Shown piece after piece: positions 2,984 to 18,324 of a DNA stretch of 64,000 nt. Within the stretch, counting starts at the first letter, position 1, and each line of letters opens with the position of its first letter. This DNA comes from Dehalococcoidia bacterium (GTDB lineage: Bacteria > Chloroflexota > Dehalococcoidia > UBA2979): the NCBI GenBank assembly GCA_050248355.1, contig JBFWSN010000004.1:13530-77529 (forward strand), written 5' to 3'. Below the pieces are notes generated by a model, which saw only the letters and a program-made list of their open reading frames with translations, was not told the origin of the DNA and searched no databases. A program made the translations under genes and the position numbers.

Positions 2984-4375
2984 GTGCTTCGCTTCCTGGG
3001 TGCGGCCGGAAACGTCACCGGCTCACGCTTCCTCCTCGAGTCCGGCGGTCGCCGTGTGCTCGTCGAGTGCGGGCTGAACCAGGAGCGCGAGTTCGCGGGC
3101 CGCAACTGGGACCCGTTCCCCGTCGACCCGCGGTCGATCGACGCGGTCATCCTCACCCACGCCCACCTCGATCATTCCGGCTACCTGCCGAGGCTTGTCC
3201 GTGACGGCTTCTCCGGACCCGCCTGGTGCACTCCCGCCACTGCCGACCTCGCTGCGATTGTCCTCGCCGATGCCGCCCGCATCGCCGTCGAAGACGCCGA
3301 CTTCAAGCGCCGCCGTCATCAGCGCGAGGGCCGCCGCGGACCGCATCCCGAAGTGCCTCTGTACACGCCTGTGGACGCCCGGCGCGCCGTGGCCCTCCTC
3401 CGTACCGCGGGGTATCACGCGCCGTGGGAGGTCGTCCCGGGCATCCGCGCCGAGTTCCGCGACGCCGGTCACATCCTCGGCTCAGCTGTGCTGACGCTGC
3501 ATGTCACCACGCCGGCCGGCGAGCGCGTCATCACGTTCTCCGGCGACCTCGGGCGTGGCGCGAACCCGATGCTTCGCGACCCCGAGCCGCCGCCGAGGTC
3601 CGACTACCTCGTCGTCGAGTCCACGTACGGCGACCGTGAGCACCCGGACGAGGATGTCGCCTCCCAGCTCGCCGATGTTATCAACGCCGCCGCCGAGGCG
3701 CGCGGGAACGTCGTCATCCCCGCCTTCGCCATCGGGCGGACCCAGGACGTGTTGTTTCACCTTCGCCATCTCCTGCGGGATCGCCGCATCCCGCGCCTGC
3801 TCGTCTTCGTCGACAGTCCCATGGCCACGTCTGTCACCCAGCTCCATCGCCGGCACCTGGAGGCGCTGGCACCCGCCTTCGCTCAGGAGTTCCGAGGCCG
3901 CAGCTCCCCGTTCGAATTTCCCGGCCTGACCTACATCCGCTCCGTCGAGGCGTCGAAGGCGATCAACCGCGTGGCGGGCACGGCCGTCATCATCGCGGGC
4001 GCCGGCATGTGTAACGGCGGCCGTGTCAAGCACCACCTCGCTGCGAACATCACAAGGCCCGAGAGCACCATCCTTTTCGTTGGCTACCAGGCCCACGGCA
4101 CGCTTGGCCGTCGCATCGTCGATGGCGACGACCCCGTCCGCATCCTGGGGCAGGAGTGGCCCGTCCGCGCGCGGGTCGCCAGCATCGAAGGCTTCTCCGC
4201 CCACGCCGGCAGGCGCGAGCTGCTGCGCTGGGTGCAGTCGGCCCCTGCGCCGGCGCCGCGCGTGCTGGTGGTCCATGGCGAGGACGCGGCATCCGCGGCG
4301 CTCGCGGCCGCGCTCCGAAGGCGGCGCGTCAAGGCGTCCGTCCCCGCGTACGGTGAGCGCGTCACGCTCGCCTGA
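2984..4375 (+). CDS. MBL-fold metallo-hydrolase, RNA-processing beta-CASP / RNase J-like
   Basis: The metallo-beta-lactamase motif HAHLDHSG is followed by a beta-CASP region and the C-terminal …GFSAHAGRREL motif. Confidence 0.8.
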   Translation: MLRFLGAAGNVTGSRFLLESGGRRVLVECGLNQEREFAGRNWDPFPVDPRSIDAVILTHAHLDHSGYLPRLVRDGFSGPAWCTPATADLAAIVLADAARIAVEDADFKRRRHQREGRRGPHPEVPLYTPVDARRAVALLRTAGYHAPWEVVPGIRAEFRDAGHILGSAVLTLHVTTPAGERVITFSGDLGRGANPMLRDPEPPPRSDYLVVESTYGDREHPDEDVASQLADVINAAAEARGNVVIPAFAIGRTQDVLFHLRHLLRDRRIPRLLVFVDSPMATSVTQLHRRHLEALAPAFAQEFRGRSSPFEFPGLTYIRSVEASKAINRVAGTAVIIAGAGMCNGGRVKHHLAANITRPESTILFVGYQAHGTLGRRIVDGDDPVRILGQEWPVRARVASIEGFSAHAGRRELLRWVQSAPAPAPRVLVVHGEDAASAALAAALRRRRVKASVPAYGERVTLA

Positions 4376-4853
4376 CCCACCCGTCCCCTGAGAGGCGCGG
4401 GCGGCCTCATTCGTCCCGGTGAGCCGTCCATCGTGTCGACGAGGTGTCGGCTGCTGCGCCGCGTTCGCGACTACCACGGCCGATCCTGGCACACGGATCG
4501 GGCCGCAGAGGCGAGCGGACGGATGTTCTCGCGCGTGTGGCCCTGACCGAGGCGGCTCCTCGCCAGTTGCGAGCGAGATGCAACGGACGCGACTCCTCCC
4601 TGACGGACATGCGAGTGCCCCGTTCGTAGTTTGGCACTCGGCGTCCGCCGTCGCGCCTCCGTCGCGCGGCGACGCCACAGCCGCCATCCGGCCTGCAAGG
4701 AGGAGCCGTGCACCGCCGCCCGCCAGTTCGCCATCGATGGGCGGGCCCCACCGAGGCCGCCCCGGTGGTCGCAGAGATGTTGCGGACGAGCAACGCTGCT
4801 TCTGCGACCTCCCCTTTGCGCGACCGGCGAGCGGTGCGCCGCGCGGCGCGTTC

Positions 4854-5913
4854 ATGACCTGGCGCGTCGATCTCGCCCGCATCCTGCTCGTCCGGCTGGA
4901 CAACCTGGGTGACGTGGTATTGCTCGCTCCGGCGGTCGCGGCCGTGCGCTCTCGCTATCCGCGCGCCCGGCTCACCCTGCTGGCCTCGCCCGGTGGGGCG
5001 GGTGCGGCGCCCCTGCTTCCCGGCATCGACGAGGTCATCGCGCACCGGCCGGTCTGGCAGGAGCTCACGCCGGGTCGCGAGTCCGCGCCGCCGGAGCACG
5101 CCTTGATCGAGGATCTCCGTGCCCGTCAGTTCGACGCAGCTGTCGTCTTCACCTCGTTCGCGCAGTCAGCGCTCCCCGCGGCGTTCGTGTGTTTTCTCGC
5201 AGGCATCCCGCTCCGCGCCGGGTACGGCGACCGCTTCGCCGGCCGCGTCCTGACAGACGAGGTCGTACCGCCGTCGGCCCCGTTGCACGAGGCCGCAGCT
5301 GGTTCAAGCCATTGGCATCAGTCCGTCCGAGCGCGCGCTGCGCATCGAAGTGCCCGATGCCGCACAGGCGGCGGCCGATGCCGCCCTGGCCTCGCTTTGC
5401 ATGAGTAGACCGTTCGTGCTGCTCGCGCCCGGCGCTTCAGCGCCTGCACGGCGGTACCCCGCCCGCCACTTCGCCGAGGTCGCCCGCGCCACCGCCGAGG
5501 CCGGCCTCAGCGTCCTCGTGACCGGGAGCCAGGGGGAGCGCGGCCTGCTGGAGTCCGTCGTCGACGGCGCCGGCCATCCCGACGCCTGCGGCATCGTCCC
5601 CGCCGACATCCCCATGCTCGCCGGGCTCGTCCGGCGGGCCGGCGCCATCATCGCGAACAACTCGCTCCCGATGCACCTCGCGGACGCCTTCCGGGTGCCG
5701 GCCGTCATCCTCTACGCCGGCACCGACCTCGAGGCGCACTGGCGTCCCCGCTTCGCCGCCGCCCGCCTCCTCTGCCGTCCTGTCGACTGTGCCCCCTGCC
5801 ACGGCATCGAGTGCGCCCACGCCCTCGAATGCCTGGATGTTCCGCCCGCCGGCGTCGTCGCGGCGCTCCACGAGCTGCTGCGCCAGGCGGCGACGCCAGC
5901 GGTGTCCGCATGA
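4854..5913 (+). pseudogene. GT9-family ADP-heptose:acceptor heptosyltransferase interrupted by a frameshift near 5295-5305
   Basis: The N-terminal part (ILLVRLDNLGDVVLLAPAV…) reads in frame 0 from the ATG at 4854. The C-terminal GT9 part (LVQAIGISPSERALRIEVPD…LLAPGASAPARRYP…NNSLPMHLADA) continues in frame +1 and ends at 5913. Comparison with the intact paralog at 10873 shows the junction lies within PLHEAAAG|LVQAIG. Confidence 0.7.
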
Positions 5914-6917
5914 TCGGAGTCGCGCGTCCCGGCAGCGGATCGATGCCCCGCGTGCTGACGTGGCACGTCCACGGCAGTTATCTGTACTACCTCTCCCGGG
6001 CCCGCTGCCAGTTCATCCTCCCGACCCGCCCCGGCCCCGCCGAGGGGTACGGCGGACGCAGCGGCGACTTCGACTGGCCCGACAACGTCATCGAGGTGCC
6101 CGCCGAAGCGGTCCGGGACATGGACTTCGACGTTGTTCTCACCCAGTCGCGTCGCAATTATCTCGAGGACCGCTTCGACCTGCTCACGGTCGACCAGCTC
6201 CGACGCCCGCTCGTGCACCTCGAGCACGACCCGCCCCGCGAGTCACCCGCCGAGACACGCCACTTCGTCGAGGACGAGCGCGCCCTCCTTGTCCACGTCA
6301 CGCCGTTCAACGCTCTGATGTGGGACAGCGGTGCCGTGCCCGCCCGTGTCATCGAGCACGGCGTGGAGGTCCCCGCCCACCTCGCCTTCCGAGGCGACCG
6401 ACCCCGCGCGATCACGGCCGTGAACAACCTCGCGCGGCGGGGACGCCGCCTCGGCCCGGACGTTTTCGACCGAGTCGCGTCCCGCGTCCCGGTCGATCTC
6501 GTGGGGATGAACGCGAAGGACCGCGACGGCATCGAGGGTCTCCGGCGGCGTGCCCTCTTCGCCCTCGAGGTGCGGTACCGCTGCTTCTTCTACCCGGTGC
6601 GCTACACGAGCCTCGGCCTCGCGGTGCTCGAGGCGATGATGCTCGGCCTGCCCGTCGTCGGCCTCGCGACCACCGAGCTGGCTACCGTCATCCAGAACGG
6701 GCGCTCGGGGTACATCGACACGGACATCGACCGCCTGACCGGGCACGTCCGTCGCCTCGTCCACAACCGCGAGGAGGCCGCGCGCCTCGGGGCGGGCGCC
6801 CGCGCCGCCGCGCTCAACCGCTTCTCCATCGAGCGGTTCGCCGACGAGTGGACGACCGTCCTGGAAGACGTCGCGAGTCGGCCGCAGCCAGGCTTGTCCA
6901 GCCGGCGCGTGGCCTGA
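5910..6917 (+). CDS. Glycosyltransferase family 1 (GT-B fold)
   Basis: The start ATG at 5910 overlaps the GT9 stop (ATGA). The C-terminal region carries the GT1 motif …YTSLGLAVLEAMMLGLPVVG…. Confidence 0.7.
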   Translation: MIGVARPGSGSMPRVLTWHVHGSYLYYLSRARCQFILPTRPGPAEGYGGRSGDFDWPDNVIEVPAEAVRDMDFDVVLTQSRRNYLEDRFDLLTVDQLRRPLVHLEHDPPRESPAETRHFVEDERALLVHVTPFNALMWDSGAVPARVIEHGVEVPAHLAFRGDRPRAITAVNNLARRGRRLGPDVFDRVASRVPVDLVGMNAKDRDGIEGLRRRALFALEVRYRCFFYPVRYTSLGLAVLEAMMLGLPVVGLATTELATVIQNGRSGYIDTDIDRLTGHVRRLVHNREEAARLGAGARAAALNRFSIERFADEWTTVLEDVASRPQPGLSSRRVA

Positions 6918-6942
6918 CGCCGCGACGGTAGGAGGAAGCCAG

Positions 6943-8823
6943 ATGTCCGTACGCACCGCGCCTCTCGCCATCGCCATCATCAGCGAACATGCGTCTCCGC
7001 TCGGCCTCGTCGGTGGCGTCGACGCTGGCGGGCAAAACGTCTACGTCGCGCGCATCGCCCGCGCGCTCGCGGCCCGCGGACACCGCGTCGATGTGTTCAC
7101 CCGCCGCGACGCGCCTGACCTGCCGCGCGTCGTCGAGGCCGACGGCTATCGCGTCTTCCACGTCGAGGCCGGTCCGGCCCGCTTCGTCCGCAAGGAGGAC
7201 TTCCTGGACCTGATGCCGGACTTCACCGAGGATGTGGCGCGGCTCGTGACCGAGCACGGCCCCTACGACCTCGTCCACGCGAACTTCTGGCTCTCTGGCG
7301 TGACGGCTGACGAGCTGAAGCGCCGCTTCGGCATCCCGTTCGCGATCACGTTCCACGCCCTGGGAAAAGTGCGGCGGCAGCACCAGGGCGCCGACGACCA
7401 GTTCCCCGACGCTCGCCTCGCGGTCGAGGCGGAACTCGTCCGCGCGGCCGACCGCATCATCGCCGAATGCCCCCAGGACGAGTTCGACCTCGTCACACTG
7501 TACGGCGCCGACCGCCGCCGGCTGATCTTGGTCCCCTGCGGCTACGACCCCGACGAGTGCGCGCCCGTCGACCGCGCCGAGGCGCGCGCGCGCCTCGGTC
7601 TCGATCCGGACGCGCCCATCGTCCTGCAGCTCGGCCGCCTAGTGCCGAGGAAGGGCGTCGATATCGTCGTCCGTGCGACCGCGATCGTCGCCGGCGAGCT
7701 GCCCGATACCCGCCTCGTGGTCGTTGGAGGCGACTCCGACGTCCCCGATCCGGAGGCGACTCCCGAGCTCGGACGCCTCTTCCAGCTTGCCCGCCAGCTC
7801 CGTATCGAGGACCGCTGCCAGTTCGTCGGGCGCCGCCCGCGGTCCGAGATCCGCCACTGGTACTCGGCCGCCGACGTCTTCGCCACGGCGCCCTGGTACG
7901 AGCCGTTCGGCATCACCCCCGTCGAGGCGATGGCATGCGGCACGCCCGTCGTCGGCACCCGTGTCGGCGGCATCCAGTACACCGTCGATCACGAGGGCAC
8001 CGGCCTGCTCGTCCCGCCGCACGACGAGTTCGCGTTCGCTCAGGCCCTGGGCCGCATCCTCGCCGACCGCGGGCTGCGCGACCGTCTCGCCGCGGGCGGG
8101 CGCGAGCGCGTCGCCCGGTTGTTCACGTGGGACCGCGTGGCCCGCGACCTCGAGTCGACGTTCCTCGCCATGGTGGCGCACCGTCCCGGCGCGCCGCCGG
8201 CGCGGCCCGCTGGTTCCCGCGCAGTCGACGCCGGCTTCGATGCCCTGATCGAGACACTGACCAGGGGCCGCCGCGAGCTCGCTCGTGAGGTCAGGGCCGC
8301 GGCGGATGTCGTCACCGCCGGCCTGGCCGAGGGCAGCAAGCTGCTGCTGTGCGGGAACGGAGGCAGCGCCTCGGACGCCGTCCACCTCGCGGGCGAGCTC
8401 GTCGGGCGCTACCGCTCCCCCGACCGCCCGGCCCTCCCTGCCGTCGTCCTGGGCGGCGACCTCGCCTCGCTTACGGCGTGGGCGAACGACGTCTCGTACG
8501 AGTCGGCCTTCGCCCGCCAGGTCGAGGCGTTCGGCCGTGACGGCGACGTGCTCATCGCCTTCAGCACGAGCGGCCGCTCGCCGAGCGTCGTCCAGGCATG
8601 CGAGGCCGCGCGTGCCGCCGGAATGCCGGTCGTCGCCTTTCTGGGCCGCGACGGAGGCCGCGTCGCCGCGCTCGCCGACGCCGCGGTCGTCGTGCGCTCG
8701 CACGACACGCAACGCATCCAGGAGGTGCACGGCCTCCTCCTTCACCTCCTGTGCGACCTCGTCGAGGAAGGTATGGGGTACGGCGTCGACCACGCCGAGG
8801 CTGCCGGGGCTGGCGCAGCATGA
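6943..8823 (+). CDS. gmhA: Fusion protein: N-terminal GT4 glycosyltransferase (MshA/sucrose-phosphate-synthase-like) plus C-terminal D-sedoheptulose-7-phosphate isomerase (GmhA, SIS domain)
   Basis: Residues 1-~420 form a GT4 domain (GGQNVYV…, EPFGITPVEAMACGTPVV). Residues ~430-626 carry the GmhA hallmarks LLCGNGGSASDA, ELVGRY, FSTSGRS and RIQEVH. It is a single uninterrupted ORF. Confidence 0.85.
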   Translation: MSVRTAPLAIAIISEHASPLGLVGGVDAGGQNVYVARIARALAARGHRVDVFTRRDAPDLPRVVEADGYRVFHVEAGPARFVRKEDFLDLMPDFTEDVARLVTEHGPYDLVHANFWLSGVTADELKRRFGIPFAITFHALGKVRRQHQGADDQFPDARLAVEAELVRAADRIIAECPQDEFDLVTLYGADRRRLILVPCGYDPDECAPVDRAEARARLGLDPDAPIVLQLGRLVPRKGVDIVVRATAIVAGELPDTRLVVVGGDSDVPDPEATPELGRLFQLARQLRIEDRCQFVGRRPRSEIRHWYSAADVFATAPWYEPFGITPVEAMACGTPVVGTRVGGIQYTVDHEGTGLLVPPHDEFAFAQALGRILADRGLRDRLAAGGRERVARLFTWDRVARDLESTFLAMVAHRPGAPPARPAGSRAVDAGFDALIETLTRGRRELAREVRAAADVVTAGLAEGSKLLLCGNGGSASDAVHLAGELVGRYRSPDRPALPAVVLGGDLASLTAWANDVSYESAFARQVEAFGRDGDVLIAFSTSGRSPSVVQACEAARAAGMPVVAFLGRDGGRVAALADAAVVVRSHDTQRIQEVHGLLLHLLCDLVEEGMGYGVDHAEAAGAGAA

Positions 8824-9413
8824 CCACGGCCTTCCTCGACAAGGACGGCACTCTTGTGGAGGACGTCCCGTACAACGTCGACCCCGCCCGCATCGAGCTC
8901 GTGGCAGCCGCTCCACGCGCCCTGCGTCTGCTCGGCGACGCAGGCTGCCGCATCGTCGTCGTCACCAACCAGTCTGGCGTCGCCCGCGGGCTCTTCCCCG
9001 AGTCCGCGCTCGAGGCAGTCCGGGAGCGCCTCTCATTGCTGCTCGCCTTACATGGCGCGCGCCTCGATGGCTTCTACTATTGCCCGCATCTCCCGCACGC
9101 CCCCGTCGCGAGGTACGCGCGTGTCTGCCCGTGCCGCAAGCCCGCCGATGGCATGCTCCGCGCCGCCGCCTCCGACCTCTCCATCGACCTGGCGGACGCA
9201 TGGCTCATCGGTGACATCCTCGACGACATCGAGGCCGGCCGCCGCGCAGGTTGCCGCACCGTGCTCGTCGACGCCGGCCACGAGACCGAATGGCACCTGA
9301 GCCCCCGCCGTGTGCCCGAGTTCACCGTCTCCGACCTCGAGCAGGCCGCCGAGACCGTACTCAGCGGGGCCCGCCGCGCTCCTGCAGCTCCCCCGCGGGG
9401 GCCTGCTCGATGA
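8820..9413 (+). CDS. gmhB: D-glycero-D-manno-heptose 1,7-bisphosphate phosphatase (GmhB, HAD family)
   Basis: The HAD motif FLDKDGTL and VVVTNQSGVARG are present, together with the Zn-binding C…CxC region (YYCPHLP…CPCRKP). The ATG at 8820 overlaps the upstream stop (ATGA). Confidence 0.85.
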   Translation: MTTAFLDKDGTLVEDVPYNVDPARIELVAAAPRALRLLGDAGCRIVVVTNQSGVARGLFPESALEAVRERLSLLLALHGARLDGFYYCPHLPHAPVARYARVCPCRKPADGMLRAAASDLSIDLADAWLIGDILDDIEAGRRAGCRTVLVDAGHETEWHLSPRRVPEFTVSDLEQAAETVLSGARRAPAAPPRGPAR

Positions 9414-10876
9414 CCGCCGACTTCACGGGCCTCCTCGATCGGATGTCGTCGCTGAGCGTCCTGGTGGTGGGTGACGCGATCCTCGACTCGTATCTCCATG
9501 GACGCAGCACACGGCTGTCCCGCGAGGCGCCGGCGCCCGTCGTCGACCTCGACGCACGCGTGGACGCCCCCGGCGGCGCCGCCAATGCTGCCGCCAGCGT
9601 GCGCGCCCTCGGCGCCCGCACCATATTGCTGTCCGCCTTTGGCTCCGACGACGGCGGCGATCGCCTCACCGCCGCCCTCGAGGGATGCGGCGTCGACGCC
9701 AACAACTCCCTGCGCATCTCGTCCCGCGCGACCCTCACCAAGCAGCGCGTCGTCGTGCCGCCGCAGGTGCTGGTGCGTCTCGATGCCGGCACGACCGCGC
9801 CCCTGGACGACCTCGCCGAGGCTGAGCTCGTCCGGCGCCTGGAGCGGCTCGTGCCGGCCGTCGATGCCATCGTCGTGTCCGACTATGGGTACGGCGTGCT
9901 CTCGGACCGCGTGATCGCCGCCCTTGCGGCGCTCCAGCGCGCCGCGCCCCGCACCCTCGTCGTCGATGCGAAGGAGCTGCCCCGCTACCGCGACGCGGGA
10001 GTCACGGCAGCGAAACCGAATTACGAGGAGGCGCGCGCGCTCCTTGGGGGCGGGCTCGATGCCGCCCTTCCGCGCATCGAGGCGGTCGTCGAGCGCCGCC
10101 TCGACCTGCTCGAACGTACGGGCGCCGAGCGCCTGGCGGTGACCGCCGATATCGACGGCGCCCTCCTCGTCGAGCGCGATGGCAGCTGGCACCGCACCTA
10201 CGCGCGCCCCGCGCCGAACAGCCGCGCCGCCGGCGCGGGCGATACCTTCGCCGCCGCGCTGACGCTCGGCCTCGCCGCGGGCGCGTCGCCGCCGGTGGCC
10301 ATGGAACTCGCCTCCGCCGCCGCTCAGGTCGTCGTCACGCGTGATGGCACGACGACGTGCTCCCTCGGTGAACTGCGCAGCGCCCTCCACGGCGGCCCCA
10401 AAGTCGTCGAGGGCGAGGACCTCGCTTCCGCCATCGCCGCTCATCGCGCCGCCGGCCGCCGCATCGTGTTCACCAACGGTTGCTTCGACATCGTCCATCG
10501 AGGCCACGTCACCTATCTCAGCCAGGCGAAGGCGGAGGGCGATGTTCTGGTCGTCGGTCTGAACTCAGACGCCAGCACCCGCCGGCTCAAGGGGCCGGGC
10601 CGCCCCGTGAACACGTTCGATGACCGCGCCCAGGTGGTCGCGGCTCTGAGCTGCGTCGACCACGTCGTGGGCTTTGAGGACGACACCCCCGAGCAGCTGC
10701 TCCGCCTGATCGCCCCCGACGTCGTGGTCAAGGGCGGCGACTATACTCGCGAGACGCTGCCGGAGGCCGCGCTCATCGAGTCGCTCGGCGGCGAGGTGCG
10801 CTTCATGCCGTACCTCGACGGTACATCGACCACGCGGCTCATCGAGCAGATCCGCGCCCACGCCGAGGCGTCGTGA
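9410..10876 (+). CDS. hldE: Bifunctional D-beta-D-heptose 7-phosphate kinase / D-beta-D-heptose 1-phosphate adenylyltransferase (HldE/RfaE)
   Basis: The N-terminal half is a pfkB-family sugar kinase. The C-terminal half is cytidylyltransferase-like (FTNGCFDIVHRGHVTYL). The ATG at 9410 overlaps the gmhB stop. Confidence 0.9.
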   Translation: MTADFTGLLDRMSSLSVLVVGDAILDSYLHGRSTRLSREAPAPVVDLDARVDAPGGAANAAASVRALGARTILLSAFGSDDGGDRLTAALEGCGVDANNSLRISSRATLTKQRVVVPPQVLVRLDAGTTAPLDDLAEAELVRRLERLVPAVDAIVVSDYGYGVLSDRVIAALAALQRAAPRTLVVDAKELPRYRDAGVTAAKPNYEEARALLGGGLDAALPRIEAVVERRLDLLERTGAERLAVTADIDGALLVERDGSWHRTYARPAPNSRAAGAGDTFAAALTLGLAAGASPPVAMELASAAAQVVVTRDGTTTCSLGELRSALHGGPKVVEGEDLASAIAAHRAAGRRIVFTNGCFDIVHRGHVTYLSQAKAEGDVLVVGLNSDASTRRLKGPGRPVNTFDDRAQVVAALSCVDHVVGFEDDTPEQLLRLIAPDVVVKGGDYTRETLPEAALIESLGGEVRFMPYLDGTSTTRLIEQIRAHAEAS

Positions 10877-11964
10877 CCCCCGCGGACTGGTCAGCGGCGC
10901 GACGGATCCTCGCCGTCCGCCTGGATGCGGCTGGCGATGTGCTGATGACCTCACCGGCGTTGCGCGCGCTCCACGACGGCGGGCCGCCAGGGACCGAGGT
11001 GACCCTGCTGACCTCGCGGGGCGGCGCGCACGCCGGCCGCCTCATCCCCGAGGTCGCCCGCGTCGTCACGTACGACGCCCCGTGGATGAAGCCGCCCGCT
11101 CCCCTCGACGCGGCGCCGCACCTCGATCTGGTCGAGCGCCTGCGCGCCGCCCGCTACGACGGCGCGGTGATCTTCACCGTGTACAGCCAGAGCACCCTCC
11201 CGGCGGCGCTGCTCTGTTTCCTCGCCGCCATTCCTCTCCGCCTCGCATACGTCCGCGAGAACCCGTACCACCTCCTTACCGACTGGGTGCCCGAGATCGA
11301 ACCCCACGAGGTCGTCCGCCACGAGGTCCGACGCCAGCTCGACCTCGTCGCCACGATCGGCCGCCGACCGCTCGACGAGCATCTCCGTCTGTCCGTCCCG
11401 GCGGAGGCGAGGCGGTGGGCAGACGCGTTCCTCGCGACGCACGGCCTCGGCACTGCGCCATGGTGTGTCCTCCACGTCGGCGCGAGCGCCCCTTCGCGGC
11501 GCTATCCACCCGAGCGCTTCGCCGCGGTGGCCCGTGCCCTGCATGGGCGCGGCTGGCGGCTCGTGTTCACGGGCGGCGAGGAGGAGCGCCCGCTCGTCGA
11601 TGCGGTGCGGGACTTCGCCGCGGTCGACTCGCTGTCGCTGTGCGGCATCCTCGACTTCCCGCGGCTGGCGGCCCTCATCGAGGCCGCCCCGTTATTGATC
11701 TCGAACAACACGGCCCCCGCGCACATCGCCGCGGCCGTCCAGACGCCCGTCGTCGACCTGTACGCGCTGACGAATCCGCAGCACACCCCGTGGCGGGTCC
11801 CCGCTCGCGTGTTGTCGCACGACGTCCCCTGTCGCAATTGCTACCGGAGCGTCTGCCCCCTCGGACACCACCTCTGCCTGGCCGGCGTGCCGCCCGAAGC
11901 GGTCGTCGACGCGGCGCTCGAGCTCGCGTCGGCTGCGGGTTCGGACGGCGCTCCCGCGTCCTAG
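10873..11964 (+). CDS. GT9-family heptosyltransferase (intact paralog)
   Basis: RILAVRLDAAGDVLMTSPALRAL…HVGASAPSRRYP…NNTAPAHIAAAV motifs are present. The GTG start overlaps the hldE stop (GTGA). Confidence 0.85.
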   Translation: MTPADWSAARRILAVRLDAAGDVLMTSPALRALHDGGPPGTEVTLLTSRGGAHAGRLIPEVARVVTYDAPWMKPPAPLDAAPHLDLVERLRAARYDGAVIFTVYSQSTLPAALLCFLAAIPLRLAYVRENPYHLLTDWVPEIEPHEVVRHEVRRQLDLVATIGRRPLDEHLRLSVPAEARRWADAFLATHGLGTAPWCVLHVGASAPSRRYPPERFAAVARALHGRGWRLVFTGGEEERPLVDAVRDFAAVDSLSLCGILDFPRLAALIEAAPLLISNNTAPAHIAAAVQTPVVDLYALTNPQHTPWRVPARVLSHDVPCRNCYRSVCPLGHHLCLAGVPPEAVVDAALELASAAGSDGAPAS

Positions 11965-13496: not shown

Positions 13497-14710
13497 CGAG
13501 CTGCCTGCGGTCGGAGGACGACCTTCAGGACGTCCCCCTCCTTCTTCTGGAACGCTTCGTATGCCCGAGGCGCTTGCTCGAGCGGCAGGTGGTGCGTCGC
13601 GAACGTGTCGAGGCCGAGCGGGTCATCGTCAGCGTTCACGTACGGCATGAGATCGTCGATCCAGCGCCGCACGTGCGCCTGTCCCATCCGGACCTGCACA
13701 CCCTTGTCGAAGAGCTGCAGCATCGCCAGCGGGTCGAGCATCCCGCCATACACCCCGATGATCGAGACCGTACCGCCCCGCCGCACCGCATCGAAGCACT
13801 GGCTGAGCACGGACAGGCGGTCGACCCCCAGCCGTCGCATCGCCGGCGCCGCCACGAAGCTCGGCAGCGAGCCCAGGAGGCGCTGCGCGGTCTCGACGAC
13901 CGGCGCGCCATGCGCTTCCATCCCTACCGCATCGATCACCGAGTCCGCACCTCGGCCGGCCGTCGCCTCGCGGATCGCCTCGACCGGGTCCGTCGAGGTG
14001 GCGTCGACCACCTCCATGCCGGCTACCCGCGCCGCTTCGAGGCGCGCGCGTACGCGGTCGACGCCGATCACCCGCGCCCCTCGCTGCAGCGCGATGCGCC
14101 CGCTCATCTGCCCGATCGGCCCGAGCCCGAAGACAGCGAGCATCCCGTCCGCCGGTATGTCGGCGTACTCCACGGCCTGCCACGCCGTCGGCAGCACGTC
14201 CGAGAGGTACAGGTAGCGGTCGTCTGGCAGGCCGTCCGGCACCGGAATCGGTCCGAACTGGGCCTGGGGCACGCGAAGATACTCCGCTTGCCCGCCCGGC
14301 ACTGATCCGTACAGTCGCGTATAACCGAAGAGCGCCGCGCCCGATTGCTGCTCGCGCACCTAGGTCGTCTCGCACTGCGCGTACAGCTCGCGCTCGCACA
14401 TGAAACAGTGCCCGCACGAGATGTTGAACGGCACCACCACCCGGTCGCCTGGGCGGATGTGCGTCACCTCGCTGCCCACCTCTTCGACGATCCCCATCGG
14501 CTCGTGACCGAGGATGTCCCCTGCGTCGAGGAACGGCCCGAGCAGTTCGTACAGGTGCAGGTCCGAACCGCAGATCGCCGTCGACGTGACCCGCACGATC
14601 GCGTCCGTCGCCGCTTCGATTTGCGGGTCAGGTACTTCCTCCACACGCACATCTCGGCGCCCATGCCACACGACAGCCTTCACCGGACACCTCCGCGGTC
14701 GCCCGGCCAC
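13493..14710 (-). pseudogene. Zn-dependent alcohol/formaldehyde dehydrogenase (glutathione-independent FDH-like), interrupted by an in-frame TAG
   Basis: The N-terminal 116 aa (…[12 protein letters not shown]…[18 protein letters not shown]) end at a TAG at 14360-14362 on the minus strand. The same frame then continues (VREQQSGAALFGYTRLYGSVPGGQAEY…) to 13493. Both halves align collinearly to one FDH-type MDR. Confidence 0.75.
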
Positions 14711-14982: not shown

Positions 14983-16197
14983 ATGGTCGCTCCGCTCGAG
15001 GGCATCCGCGTGATCGAGGTCGCCAACTGGCTCGCCGCCCCCAGTGCCGCCGCGCTCATGGCCGACCTCGGCGCGGACGTGGTCAAGGTCGAGCCCCCCG
15101 GCGGCGATGCCTATCGCGCGTTCAACCTCGGCGCGGACGCGATCGGTACGGGCGGCCCCGCCGTCAACCACGCGTTCGAACTCGACAACCGCGGCAAGCG
15201 CTCCATCACGGTCGCGCTGGGACAGCCCGGCGCGTCCGACCTCGTCCGCCGTCTCGCCGCGACCGCGGACGTCTTCATCACGAACCTGCTCCAGCCTCGG
15301 CGTGAACGCTACGGCCTGACCATCGAGGAGGTGCGCGCCGCCAGCCCGCGCATCGTCTACGTCTCGTTCAGCGGCTACGGCACCGAGGGCCCCGACGCCG
15401 CCCGCGCCGGCTTCGACTACGCTGCCTTCTGGGCCCGCTCGGGCGTCATGAACCTCCTCGGCGAGCCGGACGAGCCGCCGGTCCTCTGCCGGCCCGGACA
15501 GGGCGATCACACCGCCGCCCTCAACCTCCTCGCCTCGACCCTCGCCGCCCTGCGACTCCGCGACCTCACCGGCGAAGGACAGGTCGTCGATGTCACCCTC
15601 GTGGGCACCGGCCTCTGGACCGTGGGCACTGACTTCTCCGGCGCCCTCGCCTCGAGGCGTCAGCCGCCCCGGCACAGCCGCGCCCACCCCCGCAACCCGC
15701 TCTGGAACGCCTACCGCTGCGCGGACGGCCGCTGGCTCCTCCTCGTCATGGTGCAGCCGGACGCCTACTGGCCCGGCTTCTGTGCTGCCCTCGGCCACCC
15801 CGAATGGGAGCGTGACCCCCGCTTCGACACCCTCCAGCATCGCGCCGAGCACACCCAGGACCTCACCGCCCGCATTGCCGCCGCCTTCGCCTCTCGCCCC
15901 TCCGTCGAGTGGCCCGCGGTCCTGGACGCGCACGGTCTGATCTGGGCGCCGGTCGCCGAACTCCCGGAGGTCGCAGCCGACGAGACGGTGCGCGGCCTCG
16001 GGAGCTTCGAGGCGGTGGCGTCGGTTGAGGGCGAAGGCTACGAGACCCTTGCTGCCCCCTTCACCATCCGCGGCGCTGACGTCGCCGTCCGAGGGCCGGC
16101 GCCCGCCCCCGGCGCCGATACCCAGCGTGTCCTCGAGGAGTCGGGGCTCACCTCCGAGGAGATCGCGGGCCTCGCGGCCGGCGGGGTCTTCGGCTGA
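14983..16197 (+). CDS. CoA-transferase family III (CaiB/BaiF) protein
   Basis: N-terminal motif GIRVIEVANWLAAPSAAALMADLGADVVKVEPPGGD. Confidence 0.85.
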   Translation: MVAPLEGIRVIEVANWLAAPSAAALMADLGADVVKVEPPGGDAYRAFNLGADAIGTGGPAVNHAFELDNRGKRSITVALGQPGASDLVRRLAATADVFITNLLQPRRERYGLTIEEVRAASPRIVYVSFSGYGTEGPDAARAGFDYAAFWARSGVMNLLGEPDEPPVLCRPGQGDHTAALNLLASTLAALRLRDLTGEGQVVDVTLVGTGLWTVGTDFSGALASRRQPPRHSRAHPRNPLWNAYRCADGRWLLLVMVQPDAYWPGFCAALGHPEWERDPRFDTLQHRAEHTQDLTARIAAAFASRPSVEWPAVLDAHGLIWAPVAELPEVAADETVRGLGSFEAVASVEGEGYETLAAPFTIRGADVAVRGPAPAPGADTQRVLEESGLTSEEIAGLAAGGVFG

Positions 16198-16209
16198 GGG
16201 TCGTCCGCT

Positions 16210-17111
16210 TCAGTCGACGTCGAGGACGATCTTCCCCTGCACTTGCCGCGCGAACAGCGCGTCGCTCGCCTCGGTGATGCGCATCCACGATCCGCGCCAG
16301 CCGACCTCGATGCGCAGCTCGCCACGCTGCAGCAACCGGAGCAGGTAGTCGAGGTCCGCGCCCGAGCTGCCGCCCTTGGTGAACGCCTCGAGCCGCCGGT
16401 ACATCCCGATCAGCGACGGGAACGACGCGTTCTCCCGCGAAGCGTTGCCGATGCACTGCACGACGCCGCCTTCGCCGAGTAGAGGCCAGATCGCCGCCAG
16501 CTGCGACCCGCCCACGTTGTCGATCACGACGTGGACCGGCCGCTCCACTCCTTCGAGGCCCACTACGACCTCGTCGGCGCCGAGTTCGCGCAGCCCCTCG
16601 CCGCGCGCCTCGGACCCCACGCTCGCGATGACGTGCGCCCCCGCCAGCGCCGCCAACTGCACCGCGAAGTGACCGACACCACCCGACGCCCGGTCACGAG
16701 CACGCGCCGCCCGAGCAGCGCGCCCGAGCGCCGCAACGCCCGCAGCGCGGTCACCCCCGCCACGGGCAGCGTCGCCGCCTCCCCCAGGTCGATGTCGTCC
16801 GGCACCACGGCCAGCTCATCGAAGTCCACGGCGCGCCGCTCCGCCCAGCCGCCCTGCGACAGCATCGTCGTTACGACTCGCGCGCCCGCGGGCGGCGACC
16901 CCTCCACCTCGGCTGCCCGCAGCACGATGCCGGACGCGTCCCAGCCCGGGATGAACCTGTCGGGCCGCGTCCGAGCCCCGTTCAGGTCACCGAAGTTCAG
17001 GCTGAGGTGTCGCACTTCGACCAGCGCCTGGTTCGGCGCGGGGGCAGGTTCCGCCGCCTCGCCGATCCGAAGGCCTCCCGCCGCGTTCGAGTCCACCAGT
17101 ACCGCACGCAC
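16210..17111 (-). pseudogene. Quinone-oxidoreductase-like MDR (zinc-independent) with a 1-nt frameshift near 16680
   Basis: The upstream ORF (16563..17111) ends out of frame at …RVLVTG|RRVVSVTS. The downstream ORF (16210..16662) starts at QLAALAGAHV. Adding one G in the run at ~16684 restores VLVTGASGGVGHFAVQLAALAG. Confidence 0.7.
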
Positions 17112-17247
17112 GGCCCCGCTCCTTCCCGCGCCGTCCCCCGGCGATGCCCGATCCTACGGACGCGCCAACGAGTCGCTCAATCCCCCGTTTGACCAGGCCG
17201 CGTCGCTTCGACTCGCACCATCGTGTGCCATTCGTTCTAATGACCGC

Positions 17248-18324
17248 GTGGACGACCACCTCCCGCTGAACCTGTACGAGTACGAGGACCGCGCCCGCCG
17301 ACGCCTCTCGCCGATGGCCTGGGACTACTACTCCTCGGGCGCCCTCGACGAGATCACGCTCCGCGCCAACCGCGAGGCCTTCGACCGTCTCGAGCTCCGC
17401 TACCGTGTCCTCCGGGGAGCGGCGGGACTCGACGCGTCGACGACGCTCCTCGGCCGCAACCACGAGTGGCCGCTGCTCATCGCACCGATGGCATTCGCCC
17501 GCCTCGCGGACCCGGAGGGCGAACTCGCCGTCGCGCGCGCGGCCGAGGCGAACGGCGTGGCGATGACGCTCTCCACCCTCTCCACCACCGCCCTCGAGGA
17601 GGTCGCCGCCGCCTCGGCTCATCCGAAGTGGTTCCAGCTCTACGTCTTCCGCGACCGCGATCTCACCGCCGAGCTCGTCCGCCGCGCCGAGGCCGCCGGC
17701 TACGAGGCGCTCGTCCTCACGGTCGACGCCCCCCAGCTCGGCCGGCGCGAGCGTGACGCCCGCAACCGCTTCGCCCTCCCGCCCGGCCTCGATGCCGCGA
17801 ATATCGCCGCGCACCTCCCGCCGGTAGACGCCGGCGACGAGGGCTCGGGGCTCGCTCACTTCTTCGCCACGCAGATCGACCCCACGCTCACGTGGTCCGA
17901 TGTCGACTGGCTCCGCTCACTCACCCGGCTCCCGGTGCTTCTGAAGGGTGTCGTCCACCCCGAGGACGCCCGGCTGGCCGTCGCGCATGGCGCCGCCGGC
18001 GTGATCGTCTCGAACCACGGCGGACGCCAGCTTGACACCGCTGTCGCCGCCGTGCGCGCGTTGCCCGATGTCGCCGCCGCCATCGAGGGCCGCGCCGCCG
18101 TTCTGCTCGATGGTGGCGTCCGCCGCGGTACCGACATCGTGAAGGCGCTCGCCCTCGGTGCGGACGCCGTCCTCCTCGGACGCCCCGTCCTCTGGGGCCT
18201 CGCCGTCGAGGGCGAAGCGGGGGTGGATCACGTCCTTCGCCTCCTCCGCGCCGAGTTCGAGCACGCGATGCTCCTGTGCGGCGCAAGCTCGCGCGCCGGC
18301 CTGGATGTCGACCTGCTCCTTTAG
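17248..18324 (+). CDS. FMN-dependent alpha-hydroxy-acid oxidase / L-lactate dehydrogenase (LldD family)
   Basis: Begins …LNLYEYEDRARRRLSPMAWDYY and carries VSNHGGRQLD and the LldD C-terminal region. The likely start is the GTG at 17248. The long upstream extension of the ORF is a shadow of the minus-strand gene. Confidence 0.85.
   Translation: MDDHLPLNLYEYEDRARRRLSPMAWDYYSSGALDEITLRANREAFDRLELRYRVLRGAAGLDASTTLLGRNHEWPLLIAPMAFARLADPEGELAVARAAEANGVAMTLSTLSTTALEEVAAASAHPKWFQLYVFRDRDLTAELVRRAEAAGYEALVLTVDAPQLGRRERDARNRFALPPGLDAANIAAHLPPVDAGDEGSGLAHFFATQIDPTLTWSDVDWLRSLTRLPVLLKGVVHPEDARLAVAHGAAGVIVSNHGGRQLDTAVAAVRALPDVAAAIEGRAAVLLDGGVRRGTDIVKALALGADAVLLGRPVLWGLAVEGEAGVDHVLRLLRAEFEHAMLLCGASSRAGLDVDLLL

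Follow-up and report, generated by a model that had tools for sequence, protein, structure and literature searches.

Why should a single open reading frame (ORF) join a sugar transferase to the enzyme that starts the synthesis of adenosine diphosphate heptose (ADP-heptose)? The question is raised by the 64,000-nucleotide stretch analysed here and called the window, which covers positions 13,530 to 77,529 of the forward strand of contig JBFWSN010000004.1 (assembly GCA_050248355.1) from a Dehalococcoidia bacterium of the phylum Chloroflexota. In this window a 626-amino-acid ORF at positions 6943 to 8823 carries a GT4 glycosyltransferase domain followed by a domain of the phosphoheptose isomerase GmhA. 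It is likely that the protein is a genuine bifunctional fusion of the kind CwgG::CwgH, named after two adjacent genes of the cwg operon of Streptomyces, that it belongs to a widespread accessory heptose-glycan cluster, and that both halves are active and feed a pathway of ADP-heptose and GT9 heptosyltransferases. The direct observations that carry this reading are the ORF itself, its domains, its conserved catalytic residues, the synteny of the locus and its homology to the cwg genes. The architecture as such is of little consequence, since it is common and already deposited; the locus matters mainly because it points to a heptose-glycan pathway that is widely distributed and chemically undefined.

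The fused reading frame and its two halves

The features of the fusion are the following.

6943 to 8823, + strand: GT4::GmhA fusion ORF of 626 codons with an ATG start, from the ORF listing
6931 to 6936, + strand: ribosome-binding site GGAGGA, 6 nucleotides 5' of the fusion ATG, read off the sequence
6943 to 8169, + strand: GT4 domain (retaining, GT-B fold), CwgG-like, residues about 1 to 409, placed by Pfam, PDB sequence matches and Foldseek
8170 to 8235, + strand: interdomain linker, residues 410 to 431, placed by the family alignment, the AlphaFold2 model and the nonsynonymous rate
8236 to 8778, + strand: GmhA-type SIS domain, CwgH-like, residues about 432 to 612, placed by SIS_2, TIGR00441 and the match to 2xbl

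Is the long ORF real? A sequence-only reading of this DNA had described one 626-amino-acid ORF in which an entire GT4 domain is joined to an entire GmhA domain with every catalytic motif in place, and this is confirmed by the ORF listing, Pfam and the alignments. Pfam places Glyco_transf_4 / Glyco_trans_4_4 at residues 29 to 204 and Glycos_transf_1 at residues 210 to 389 (139 bits), all far over their gathering scores, and SIS_2 (PF13580) at residues 433 to 567 with 93.4 bits against a cut-off of 27. The same reading had singled out positions 8150 to 8300 as the place to look for a missed stop or a frameshift, and none is found there. The GC content of third codon positions is 0.84 to 0.96 over the entire ORF, junction included, and the two alternative frames are closed at the junction by stops at 8246, 8258 and 8286. 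An independent Dehalococcoidia metagenome-assembled genome (MAG; locus L005) has a homologue of identical length with 91% identity. The two genes differ by 140 synonymous and 55 nonsynonymous codon differences, and the nonsynonymous changes per codon amount to 0.083 and 0.077 in the two halves and 0.318 in the 22-residue linker. Purifying selection acts on both halves of the fusion.

In the alignment of 28 fused sequences the linker varies in sequence and length and keeps its position. The AlphaFold2 model of the fusion has a predicted local distance difference test (pLDDT) score of 88 and two well-folded domains, with linker residues 416 to 422 under 50, and the linker is predicted to be a disordered tether. 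The model is that of a monomer with a predicted template modelling (pTM) score of 0.67, at which the orientation of the domains to each other is untrustworthy, and no geometry for the channelling of an intermediate was drawn from it. A frame check on fetched DNA found the fused ORF unbroken in 11 independent loci (L001 to L009, L029 and L048), which span six phyla (Chloroflexota, Deinococcota, Myxococcota, Actinomycetota, Bacteroidota and Cyanobacteria) and include a complete plasmid of Deinococcus metallilatus. A missed stop or frameshift is excluded because the frame is continuous, the L005 homologue has the same length and the fusion recurs in these independent loci.

The C-terminal half can be aligned from end to end with solved structures of GmhA, best with that of Burkholderia pseudomallei (2xbl, 160 bits). 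The zinc/catalytic ligands of the B. pseudomallei enzyme are H64, E68, Q175 and H183, and they are completely conserved among GmhA orthologues (PMC5705639). Their counterparts in the fusion, H481, E485, Q593 and H601, are invariant in all 28 fused proteins, among which the GNGGS motif at 471 to 475, R489 and the phosphate loop S541-T542-S543-G544 are invariant or nearly so. The GmhA families are the top-scoring NCBIfam models for this half, with scores that lie under the cut-offs both for the GmhA equivalog TIGR00441 (174.4 against 209.45) and for the GmhA model NF010546 (182.2 against 276). With only the SIS half as query, an exhaustive search places standalone GmhAs of about 190 amino acids directly after the fused proteins, at 45 to 52% identity. 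Among the 50%-identity representatives of this SIS-only search no score gap separates fused from standalone GmhAs, and no special GmhA clade is claimed for the fused domain. Because of the full-length alignment, the kept catalytic residues and the missing score gap, the C-terminal half is to all appearances a regular GmhA and not a divergent paralogue. Its genomic association is that of a GmhA as well: genes for a GmhB-like HAD phosphatase and for HldE stand directly 3' of the fusion with overlapping stop and start codons, and likewise in related loci.

The N-terminal half has the two Rossmann-like domains of a GT-B enzyme (PF13439/PF13579 and PF00534) and the EX7E motif, formed by E320 and E328. 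These two residues and K84, H138 and R158 are invariant in 28 of 28 fused proteins. The earlier description of this domain as MshA-like proves imprecise. MshA is the best NCBIfam family for the half, and its model TIGR03449 gives 303.3 bits against an equivalog cut-off of 462.5. Among solved structures the half is nearer to TeSPS, the sucrose-phosphate synthase (SPS) of Thermosynechococcus elongatus, than to MshA, both by sequence (279 bits and 39% identity to 6kih, against 215 bits and 33% identity to 3c48) and by fold, where Foldseek with the AlphaFold2 model of the half gives template modelling scores of 0.93 to TeSPS 6kih and 0.91 to MshA. The SPS family model TIGR02472 scores the fusion at 109.8 against 576 bits, and a true sucrose-phosphate synthase is rejected on this ground. 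TeSPS cannot do without H158 and E331; it binds the phosphate of uridine diphosphate (UDP) through R249 and R253 and that of the acceptor through R105 and R178 (PMC7264703). The equivalents in the fusion are H138, E320, R232, R236, K84 (a conservative change of Arg to Lys) and R158, all of them invariant or nearly so. This match indicates that the mechanism is shared and the acceptor anionic, and not that the half is an SPS. Fructose 6-phosphate is very unlikely to be the acceptor of the GT4 half.

The ligands that hold the phosphate of inositol phosphate in MshA, which we take to be K78, Y110, T134 and R154, form a list that reportedly goes back to work of Vetting and colleagues in 2008. Two of them, K78 and R154, are kept as K84 and R158. 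The other two are replaced, Y110 by F115 and T134 by A139, each in 27 of the 28 fused sequences, and the complete ligand set of MshA is not present in the family. A mycothiol enzyme of the MshA kind is rejected because of the score under the cut-off, the two replaced acceptor ligands and the wrong gene context. The closest characterised relatives of the GT4 half use small anionic acceptors, namely fructose 6-phosphate (TeSPS), inositol 1-phosphate (MshA), glucose 1-phosphate (GlgM) and malate (BshA). Judged by its conserved residues, the N-terminal half is a retaining GT4 fit for catalysis, and it is neither MshA nor SPS.

The operon, the cwg genes and the spread of the cluster

The fusion has the following neighbours in the window.

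4854 to 5913, + strand: GT9 heptosyltransferase gene, CwgE-like, disrupted; PF01075 in the C-terminal fragment, 5350 to 5913
5943 to 6917, + strand: CwgF-like divergent GT-B protein of 324 amino acids, labelled GTs; Pfam Glycos_transf_1 in the C-terminal part only
8820 to 9413, + strand: GmhB-like HAD-IIIA phosphatase, CwgD-like; NF006506 142 bits, Escherichia coli GmhB 3l8e 111 bits
9410 to 10876, + strand: bifunctional HldE (heptose-7-phosphate kinase/heptose-1-phosphate adenylyltransferase), CwgI-like; NF008454 381 bits over the full length, PfkB and CTP_transf_like domains
10873 to 11964, + strand: GT9 heptosyltransferase, labelled GT9b; PF01075 109 bits, heptosyltransferase II/III models 107 to 112 bits
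11981 to 12715, - strand: classical short-chain dehydrogenase/reductase (SDR), convergent; NCBIfam SDR models and synteny, with the start set at the Met that gives 244 amino acids, as in L005

The + strand genes of this list form, with the fusion, a compact and translationally coupled operon, downstream of which lies the SDR. In its last four genes each start overlaps the stop before it: the fusion and the HAD gene overlap in an ATGA, the HldE start lies on the HAD stop in another ATGA, and the GT9b start lies on the HldE stop in a GTGA. Upstream, an alignment to the intact 356-amino-acid L005 gene reveals an 11-bp deletion near 5295 that splits the first GT9 gene into ORFs 4419 to 5408 and 5350 to 5913; the frameshifted gene at 4854 to 5913 is either a pseudogene or an assembly error. 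The gene of the CwgF-like protein adjoins the GT4 gene in most loci. In 38 of its 41 homologues (loci L001 to L048) Thr (T222) stands in place of the first Glu of the EX7E motif, and the second, E230, is invariant; the protein may partner the GT4 in a non-canonical or non-catalytic role. A convincing membrane segment is absent from all core proteins, and the conserved core holds no lipid-carrier transferase, flippase or ligase; for this reason the early steps of the pathway would be cytoplasmic.

In Streptomyces coelicolor, the cwg ('putative cell wall glycan') operon comprises sco6179 to 6190; of the targets known for sigma-E, a sigma factor of envelope stress, it was one of the first two. 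It has been known since 2002 as a locus induced by vancomycin and sigma-E, as that work is cited in PMC6767563. In this operon cwgE has been described as a putative heptosyl transferase, cwgG (SCO6185) as a transferase, cwgH (SCO6186) as a phosphoheptose isomerase, cwgI (SCO6187) as a bifunctional synthase/transferase and cwgJ (SCO6188) as a transferase, with cwgG and cwgH as adjacent, separate genes. A chromosomal Streptomyces locus (L090) has the order dehydratase, carbamoyltransferase, GT2, HAD, GT9, GTs, GT4, SIS, HldE and GT9, with a deacetylase upstream, and this order equals the published descriptions of cwgA to cwgJ one for one. In blastp comparisons, residues 8 to 415 of the fusion match the CwgG-like GT4 of L090 at 45% identity (274 bits), and residues 434 to 605 match its CwgH-like SIS protein at 44% (124 bits). 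The other proteins of the window find partners in the same locus, the GTs protein in the CwgF-like one (37%), HAD in the CwgD-like one (45%), HldE in the CwgI-like one (39%), GT9b in the CwgE-like one (39%) and the SDR in a neighbouring SDR (45%); the disrupted first GT9 of the window is 36 to 39% identical to the CwgE-like GT9 of Streptomyces. Because of this gene-by-gene match at 37 to 45% identity, the best description of the window protein, by homology, is that of CwgG fused to CwgH and encoded in a cwg-type operon of compact form from Chloroflexota. In a search with the GT4 of Streptomyces rimosus, the best 120 matches are Streptomyces clusters at 71 to 100% identity, none of them labelled S. 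coelicolor.

How common is the fusion? The sequence-only reading knew of no description of this architecture and would have counted itself refuted if it proved common and already annotated in related taxa, and it is both. In a collection of 5.8 billion proteins the best 120 matches to the fusion all combine GT4 with SIS_2, at lengths of 620 to 975 amino acids and identities of 50 to 91%. They come from Dehalococcoidia, Anaerolineales, other Chloroflexota, Deinococcus, Nannocystis, Actinomycetota MAGs and other sources. Cultured organisms with a deposited fused protein are D. metallilatus (on a plasmid), D. carri, D. phoenicis, other Deinococcus, Nannocystis exedens and N. pusilla, and the names given to the entries, those of RefSeq and UniRef included, are 'glycosyltransferase', 'phosphoheptose isomerase' and 'D-inositol-3-phosphate glycosyltransferase'. 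In the literature no paper was found that describes a GT4-GmhA fusion or this cluster outside Streptomyces. The window protein adds one more member to an uncharacterised protein family that is already deposited, with an architecture neither rare nor new to databases, and it is a fused form of a gene pair that received its name in 2002. GmhA is also found in other combinations in public data, as a GmhA::PfkB heptose kinase (P0158) and as a fusion of a GmhB-like HAD to GmhA (P0208). Tandem SIS-SIS proteins are present among the matches of the SIS-half search (P0121 and P0134), and one protein from Myxococcota is a triple fusion of CwgF-like, GT4 and GmhA parts with 975 amino acids (P0092).

The same core surrounds the fused gene in Deinococcus, Nannocystis, Anaerolineales, Chloroflexia, an Actinomycetota MAG and a cyanobacterium, and Bacteroidota are also among the taxa whose cluster carries the fusion. 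In most other loci the SDR gene follows the GT4(::SIS) gene and precedes that of the HAD. The cluster exists in three states. It is fused; or GT4 and gmhA are adjacent in the same order as separate ORFs (Goekera, Geodermatophilus, Nocardiopsis, Saccharopolyspora, Streptosporangium, Sphaerisporangium, Actinomadura, Nonomuraea and Streptomyces); or a GT4 orthologue at 47 to 56% identity occurs with no gmhA, mostly with no hldE and nearly always with HAD (Paraburkholderia, Burkholderia, Cupriavidus, Massilia, Aromatoleum, Azoarcus, Pigmentiphaga, planctomycetes, Chitinophaga and Elusimicrobiota). For cultured actinomycetes a fused protein is rejected, as the frame check gives GT4 and gmhA there as separate adjacent ORFs. 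Proteobacteria normally make ADP-heptose for lipopolysaccharide (LPS) from genes elsewhere in the genome, and a simple reading is that gmhA and hldE belong to the cluster itself where a housekeeping supply is absent. In a neighbour-joining tree of the GT4 domain, which has no support values and serves as an indication only, the fused forms are scattered among the unfused, and the fused gene of Conexibacteraceae is nested in the separate-adjacent clade. The tree suggests that more than one fusion or fission event may have taken place.

Where the cluster is fuller, it also encodes a NodU/CmcH-type carbamoyltransferase, a GT2, an epimerase/dehydratase of nucleoside diphosphate (NDP) sugars or UXS, and a third GT9; a pyruvyl transferase, a PIG-L deacetylase or an ABC exporter nearby is seen in some cases. 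Deinococcus, Burkholderia and S. rimosus carry the cluster on plasmids or secondary replicons. Regulators of the PucR type (GGDEF_2 and HTH_30) flank it in three phyla, in Deinococcus (L001), Actinomycetota (L006) and Anaerolineales (L007). In Burkholderia multivorans (L088) the GT4 orthologue, UXS and a PIG-L deacetylase stand on a secondary replicon amid stress-type genes (BON, DUF892, DUF4142, CBS and sigma-54 regulators). An Azoarcus MAG (L030) has a radical-SAM/SPASM protein at 15555 to 16604, inside the cluster between the carbamoyltransferase and the GT9/GTs genes.

Closer to the window, L005 has a 1318-amino-acid PAS/GAF sensor and a response regulator between the beta-CASP gene and the GT9 gene (3047 to 7359); the corresponding interval of the window, 4375 to 4854, is only about 480 bp long, and both genes are absent from it. 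Further downstream in the window, at 16531 to 18324 on the + strand, a 597-amino-acid ORF has a dehydrogenase domain dependent on flavin mononucleotide at residues 255 to 594 only. Its N-terminal extension of about 250 residues has no Pfam match, and its start codon may be over-extended.

The proposed pathway and its alternatives

What would the two halves do together? For the bifunctional CwgG::CwgH fusion we infer the donor, acceptor, product and cellular destination as follows. The GmhA half would start the synthesis of ADP-heptose, and HldE and the GmhB-like HAD encoded downstream would convert its product to ADP-heptose, which the two GT9 heptosyltransferases would take as donor. The GT4 half would take a hexose or N-acetylhexosamine from an NDP-sugar and attach it to a small acceptor that is anionic and probably carries a phosphate. 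The product may serve as the primer, or as an early acceptor, for the other transferases, and a heptose-containing oligosaccharide would result. The fusion would ensure that two enzymes of the pathway are made in a 1:1 ratio and are co-localised. The coupling of ADP-heptose synthesis to glycosyl transfer, which had been proposed from the sequence, can be retained as plausible because the fusion lies in an ADP-heptose gene context.

Several points weigh against this reading. Both halves score under the equivalog cut-offs of the families nearest to them, the GT4 half under that of MshA and the C-terminal half under those of GmhA, and the two enzyme activities are deduced from sequence. Of the four residues that bind the acceptor phosphate in MshA, two are replaced, and the acceptor may not be a phosphate ester. 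The link between L090 and sco6179 to 6190 rests on gene order and published descriptions, not on S. coelicolor sequences. The cwg product is uncharacterised, Streptomyces included, and papers up to 2026 go on calling it putative. The conserved core has no convincing membrane segment and no lipid-carrier enzyme, so a destination in the cell wall is unproven.

The alternative that survives best differs in the acceptor. The GT4 half may glycosylate the heptose 7-phosphate made by its own GmhA half (or sedoheptulose 7-phosphate), after which the GmhB-like HAD would remove the 7-phosphate. The two proteins would then form a synthase/phosphatase pair, by analogy with the pairing of SPS with sucrose-phosphate phosphatase (SPP) or of MshA with MshA2; the fused activities would be consecutive, and the glycan primer itself would be a heptoside extended by the GT9s. 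The nearest characterised relatives of the GT4 half (TeSPS, MshA, GlgM and BshA) all glycosylate small anionic acceptors, and the basic ligands of the acceptor phosphate are invariant, K84 corresponding to R105 of TeSPS and K78 of MshA, and R158 to R178 and R154. GT4 is also the gene that is repeatedly fused to gmhA. In nearly all clusters that have neither gmhA nor hldE (such as those of Paraburkholderia, Cupriavidus, Massilia and Aromatoleum) the HAD gene is kept directly 3' of GT4, which suggests that its role is tied to the GT4 and not to the supply of ADP-heptose alone. However, the identity of the acceptor is without direct evidence, the changes of Y110 to F and T134 to A drop two phosphate contacts, and the geometry between the domains is of low confidence at the pTM given above. 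Adjacency alone can lead genes to fuse, and the canonical set of GmhA, HldE and GmhB with the GT9s already accounts for every gene. Such channelling is considered unlikely. If it were true, the chemistry of the cwg 'cell wall glycan' would be defined, and the pathway would be a mobile envelope- or stress-related glycan module in at least 8 phyla.

It could also be thought that the SIS domain is not an isomerase and acts as a sugar-phosphate-sensing or scaffolding module, comparable to DiaA, RpiR-type or GlmS-type domains, that regulates or oligomerises the transferase. The score of the whole protein under the GmhA equivalog cut-offs fits this idea, as do the matches to DiaA models (129 bits) and the DiaA structures among the PDB matches. 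However, the GmhA models outscore those of DiaA (182 and 174 bits against 129), the H481/E485/Q593/H601 tetrad, the GNGGS motif and the STSG loop are kept throughout the 28 fused proteins, the domain is about 45 to 52% identical to ordinary standalone GmhAs, and in the fused loci it is the sole gmhA beside hldE and gmhB. A purely regulatory SIS domain is highly improbable.

That assembly or sequencing merged two genes by a lost stop or a junction frameshift, an idea favoured by the gap of only 50 to 230 bp between the separate GT4 and gmhA genes of cultured actinomycetes and by the frameshifted neighbour of the fusion in the window, is hardly conceivable and is rejected in view of the same architecture and length in the independent 91%-identical MAG, the unbroken fused ORFs in 11 loci, complete isolate genomes among them, the continuous codon-position GC signal, the stops in the alternative frames and a linker position kept in 28 sequences.

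The bifunctional CwgG::CwgH fusion thus remains the preferred reading, and its interest lies beyond the protein. The fusion can be used as a 'Rosetta stone' that links the GT4 CwgG to heptose metabolism. The cwg operon of Streptomyces is one version of a cluster found also in Chloroflexota, Deinococcota, Myxococcota, Cyanobacteria, Bacteroidota, Planctomycetota, Elusimicrobiota and Proteobacteria. Monoderm makers of ADP-heptose bear on the role of this sugar nucleotide as an innate-immune agonist, and the fused enzymes of cultured Deinococcus or Nannocystis would be handy single-polypeptide reagents for the first steps of the pathway.

Comparison with known systems

TeSPS (6kih; PMC7264703) is the best match of the GT4 half among solved structures, and its residues H158, E331, E339, R249, R253 and R178 are kept in the fusion. 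The fusion differs from it in a score far under the SPS cut-off and in its surroundings, which hold no SPP-type phosphatase and no sucrose genes; the adjoining phosphatase is a GmhB-type HAD-IIIA protein.

MshA of Corynebacterium glutamicum (3c48/3c4q) shares with the half the GT4 fold and the residues K78 and R154, kept as K84 and R158. However, the fused family carries F115 and A139, and its context consists of heptose genes and not of mycothiol genes. To our knowledge, the family is present also in phyla that do not make mycothiol.

GmhA, as known from B. pseudomallei (2xbl/2x3y) and E. coli (2i22), is like the C-terminal half in the SIS_2 fold, in the four zinc/catalytic ligands and in the phosphate-binding motifs, and the fusion shares its operon with GmhB and HldE. 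Here GmhA is the C-terminal domain of a 626-amino-acid protein instead of a standalone tetramer subunit of about 190 amino acids, and it falls under the NCBIfam equivalog cut-offs.

The LPS inner core, with WaaC and WaaF of family GT9, WaaG of family GT4 and the carbamoyltransferase of Pseudomonas, resembles the cluster in the synthesis of ADP-heptose, in at least two GT9s, in a GT4 and, in the fuller versions, in a carbamoyltransferase. In contrast, the cluster occurs in monoderm Chloroflexota and Actinomycetota that have no lipid A or 3-deoxy-D-manno-oct-2-ulosonic acid (Kdo), its GT9s lie under all cut-offs for LPS heptosyltransferases, and its GT4 matches WaaG weakly, at 48 bits. An LPS inner-core operon is rejected because monoderm phyla carry the cluster and the GT9 scores lie under every cut-off.

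The closest known system is the cwg operon. The two differ in that cwgG and cwgH are two genes in Streptomyces and one ORF in the window, that HAD lies downstream of the fusion in the window and upstream in Streptomyces, and that the window has no equivalents of cwgA to cwgC (NDP-sugar dehydratase, carbamoyltransferase and GT2). The organism of the window belongs to Chloroflexota, and regulation by sigma-E is known from Streptomyces only. Both systems have the GT9 of cwgE, the GTs protein of cwgF, the GT4 of cwgG, the GmhA of cwgH, the HldE of cwgI, the GT9 of cwgJ and the HAD of cwgD. In both, GT4 is encoded directly 5' of gmhA, hldE and a GT9 follow downstream, and the order is kept within the blocks GT9-GTs-GT4-SIS and HldE-GT9.

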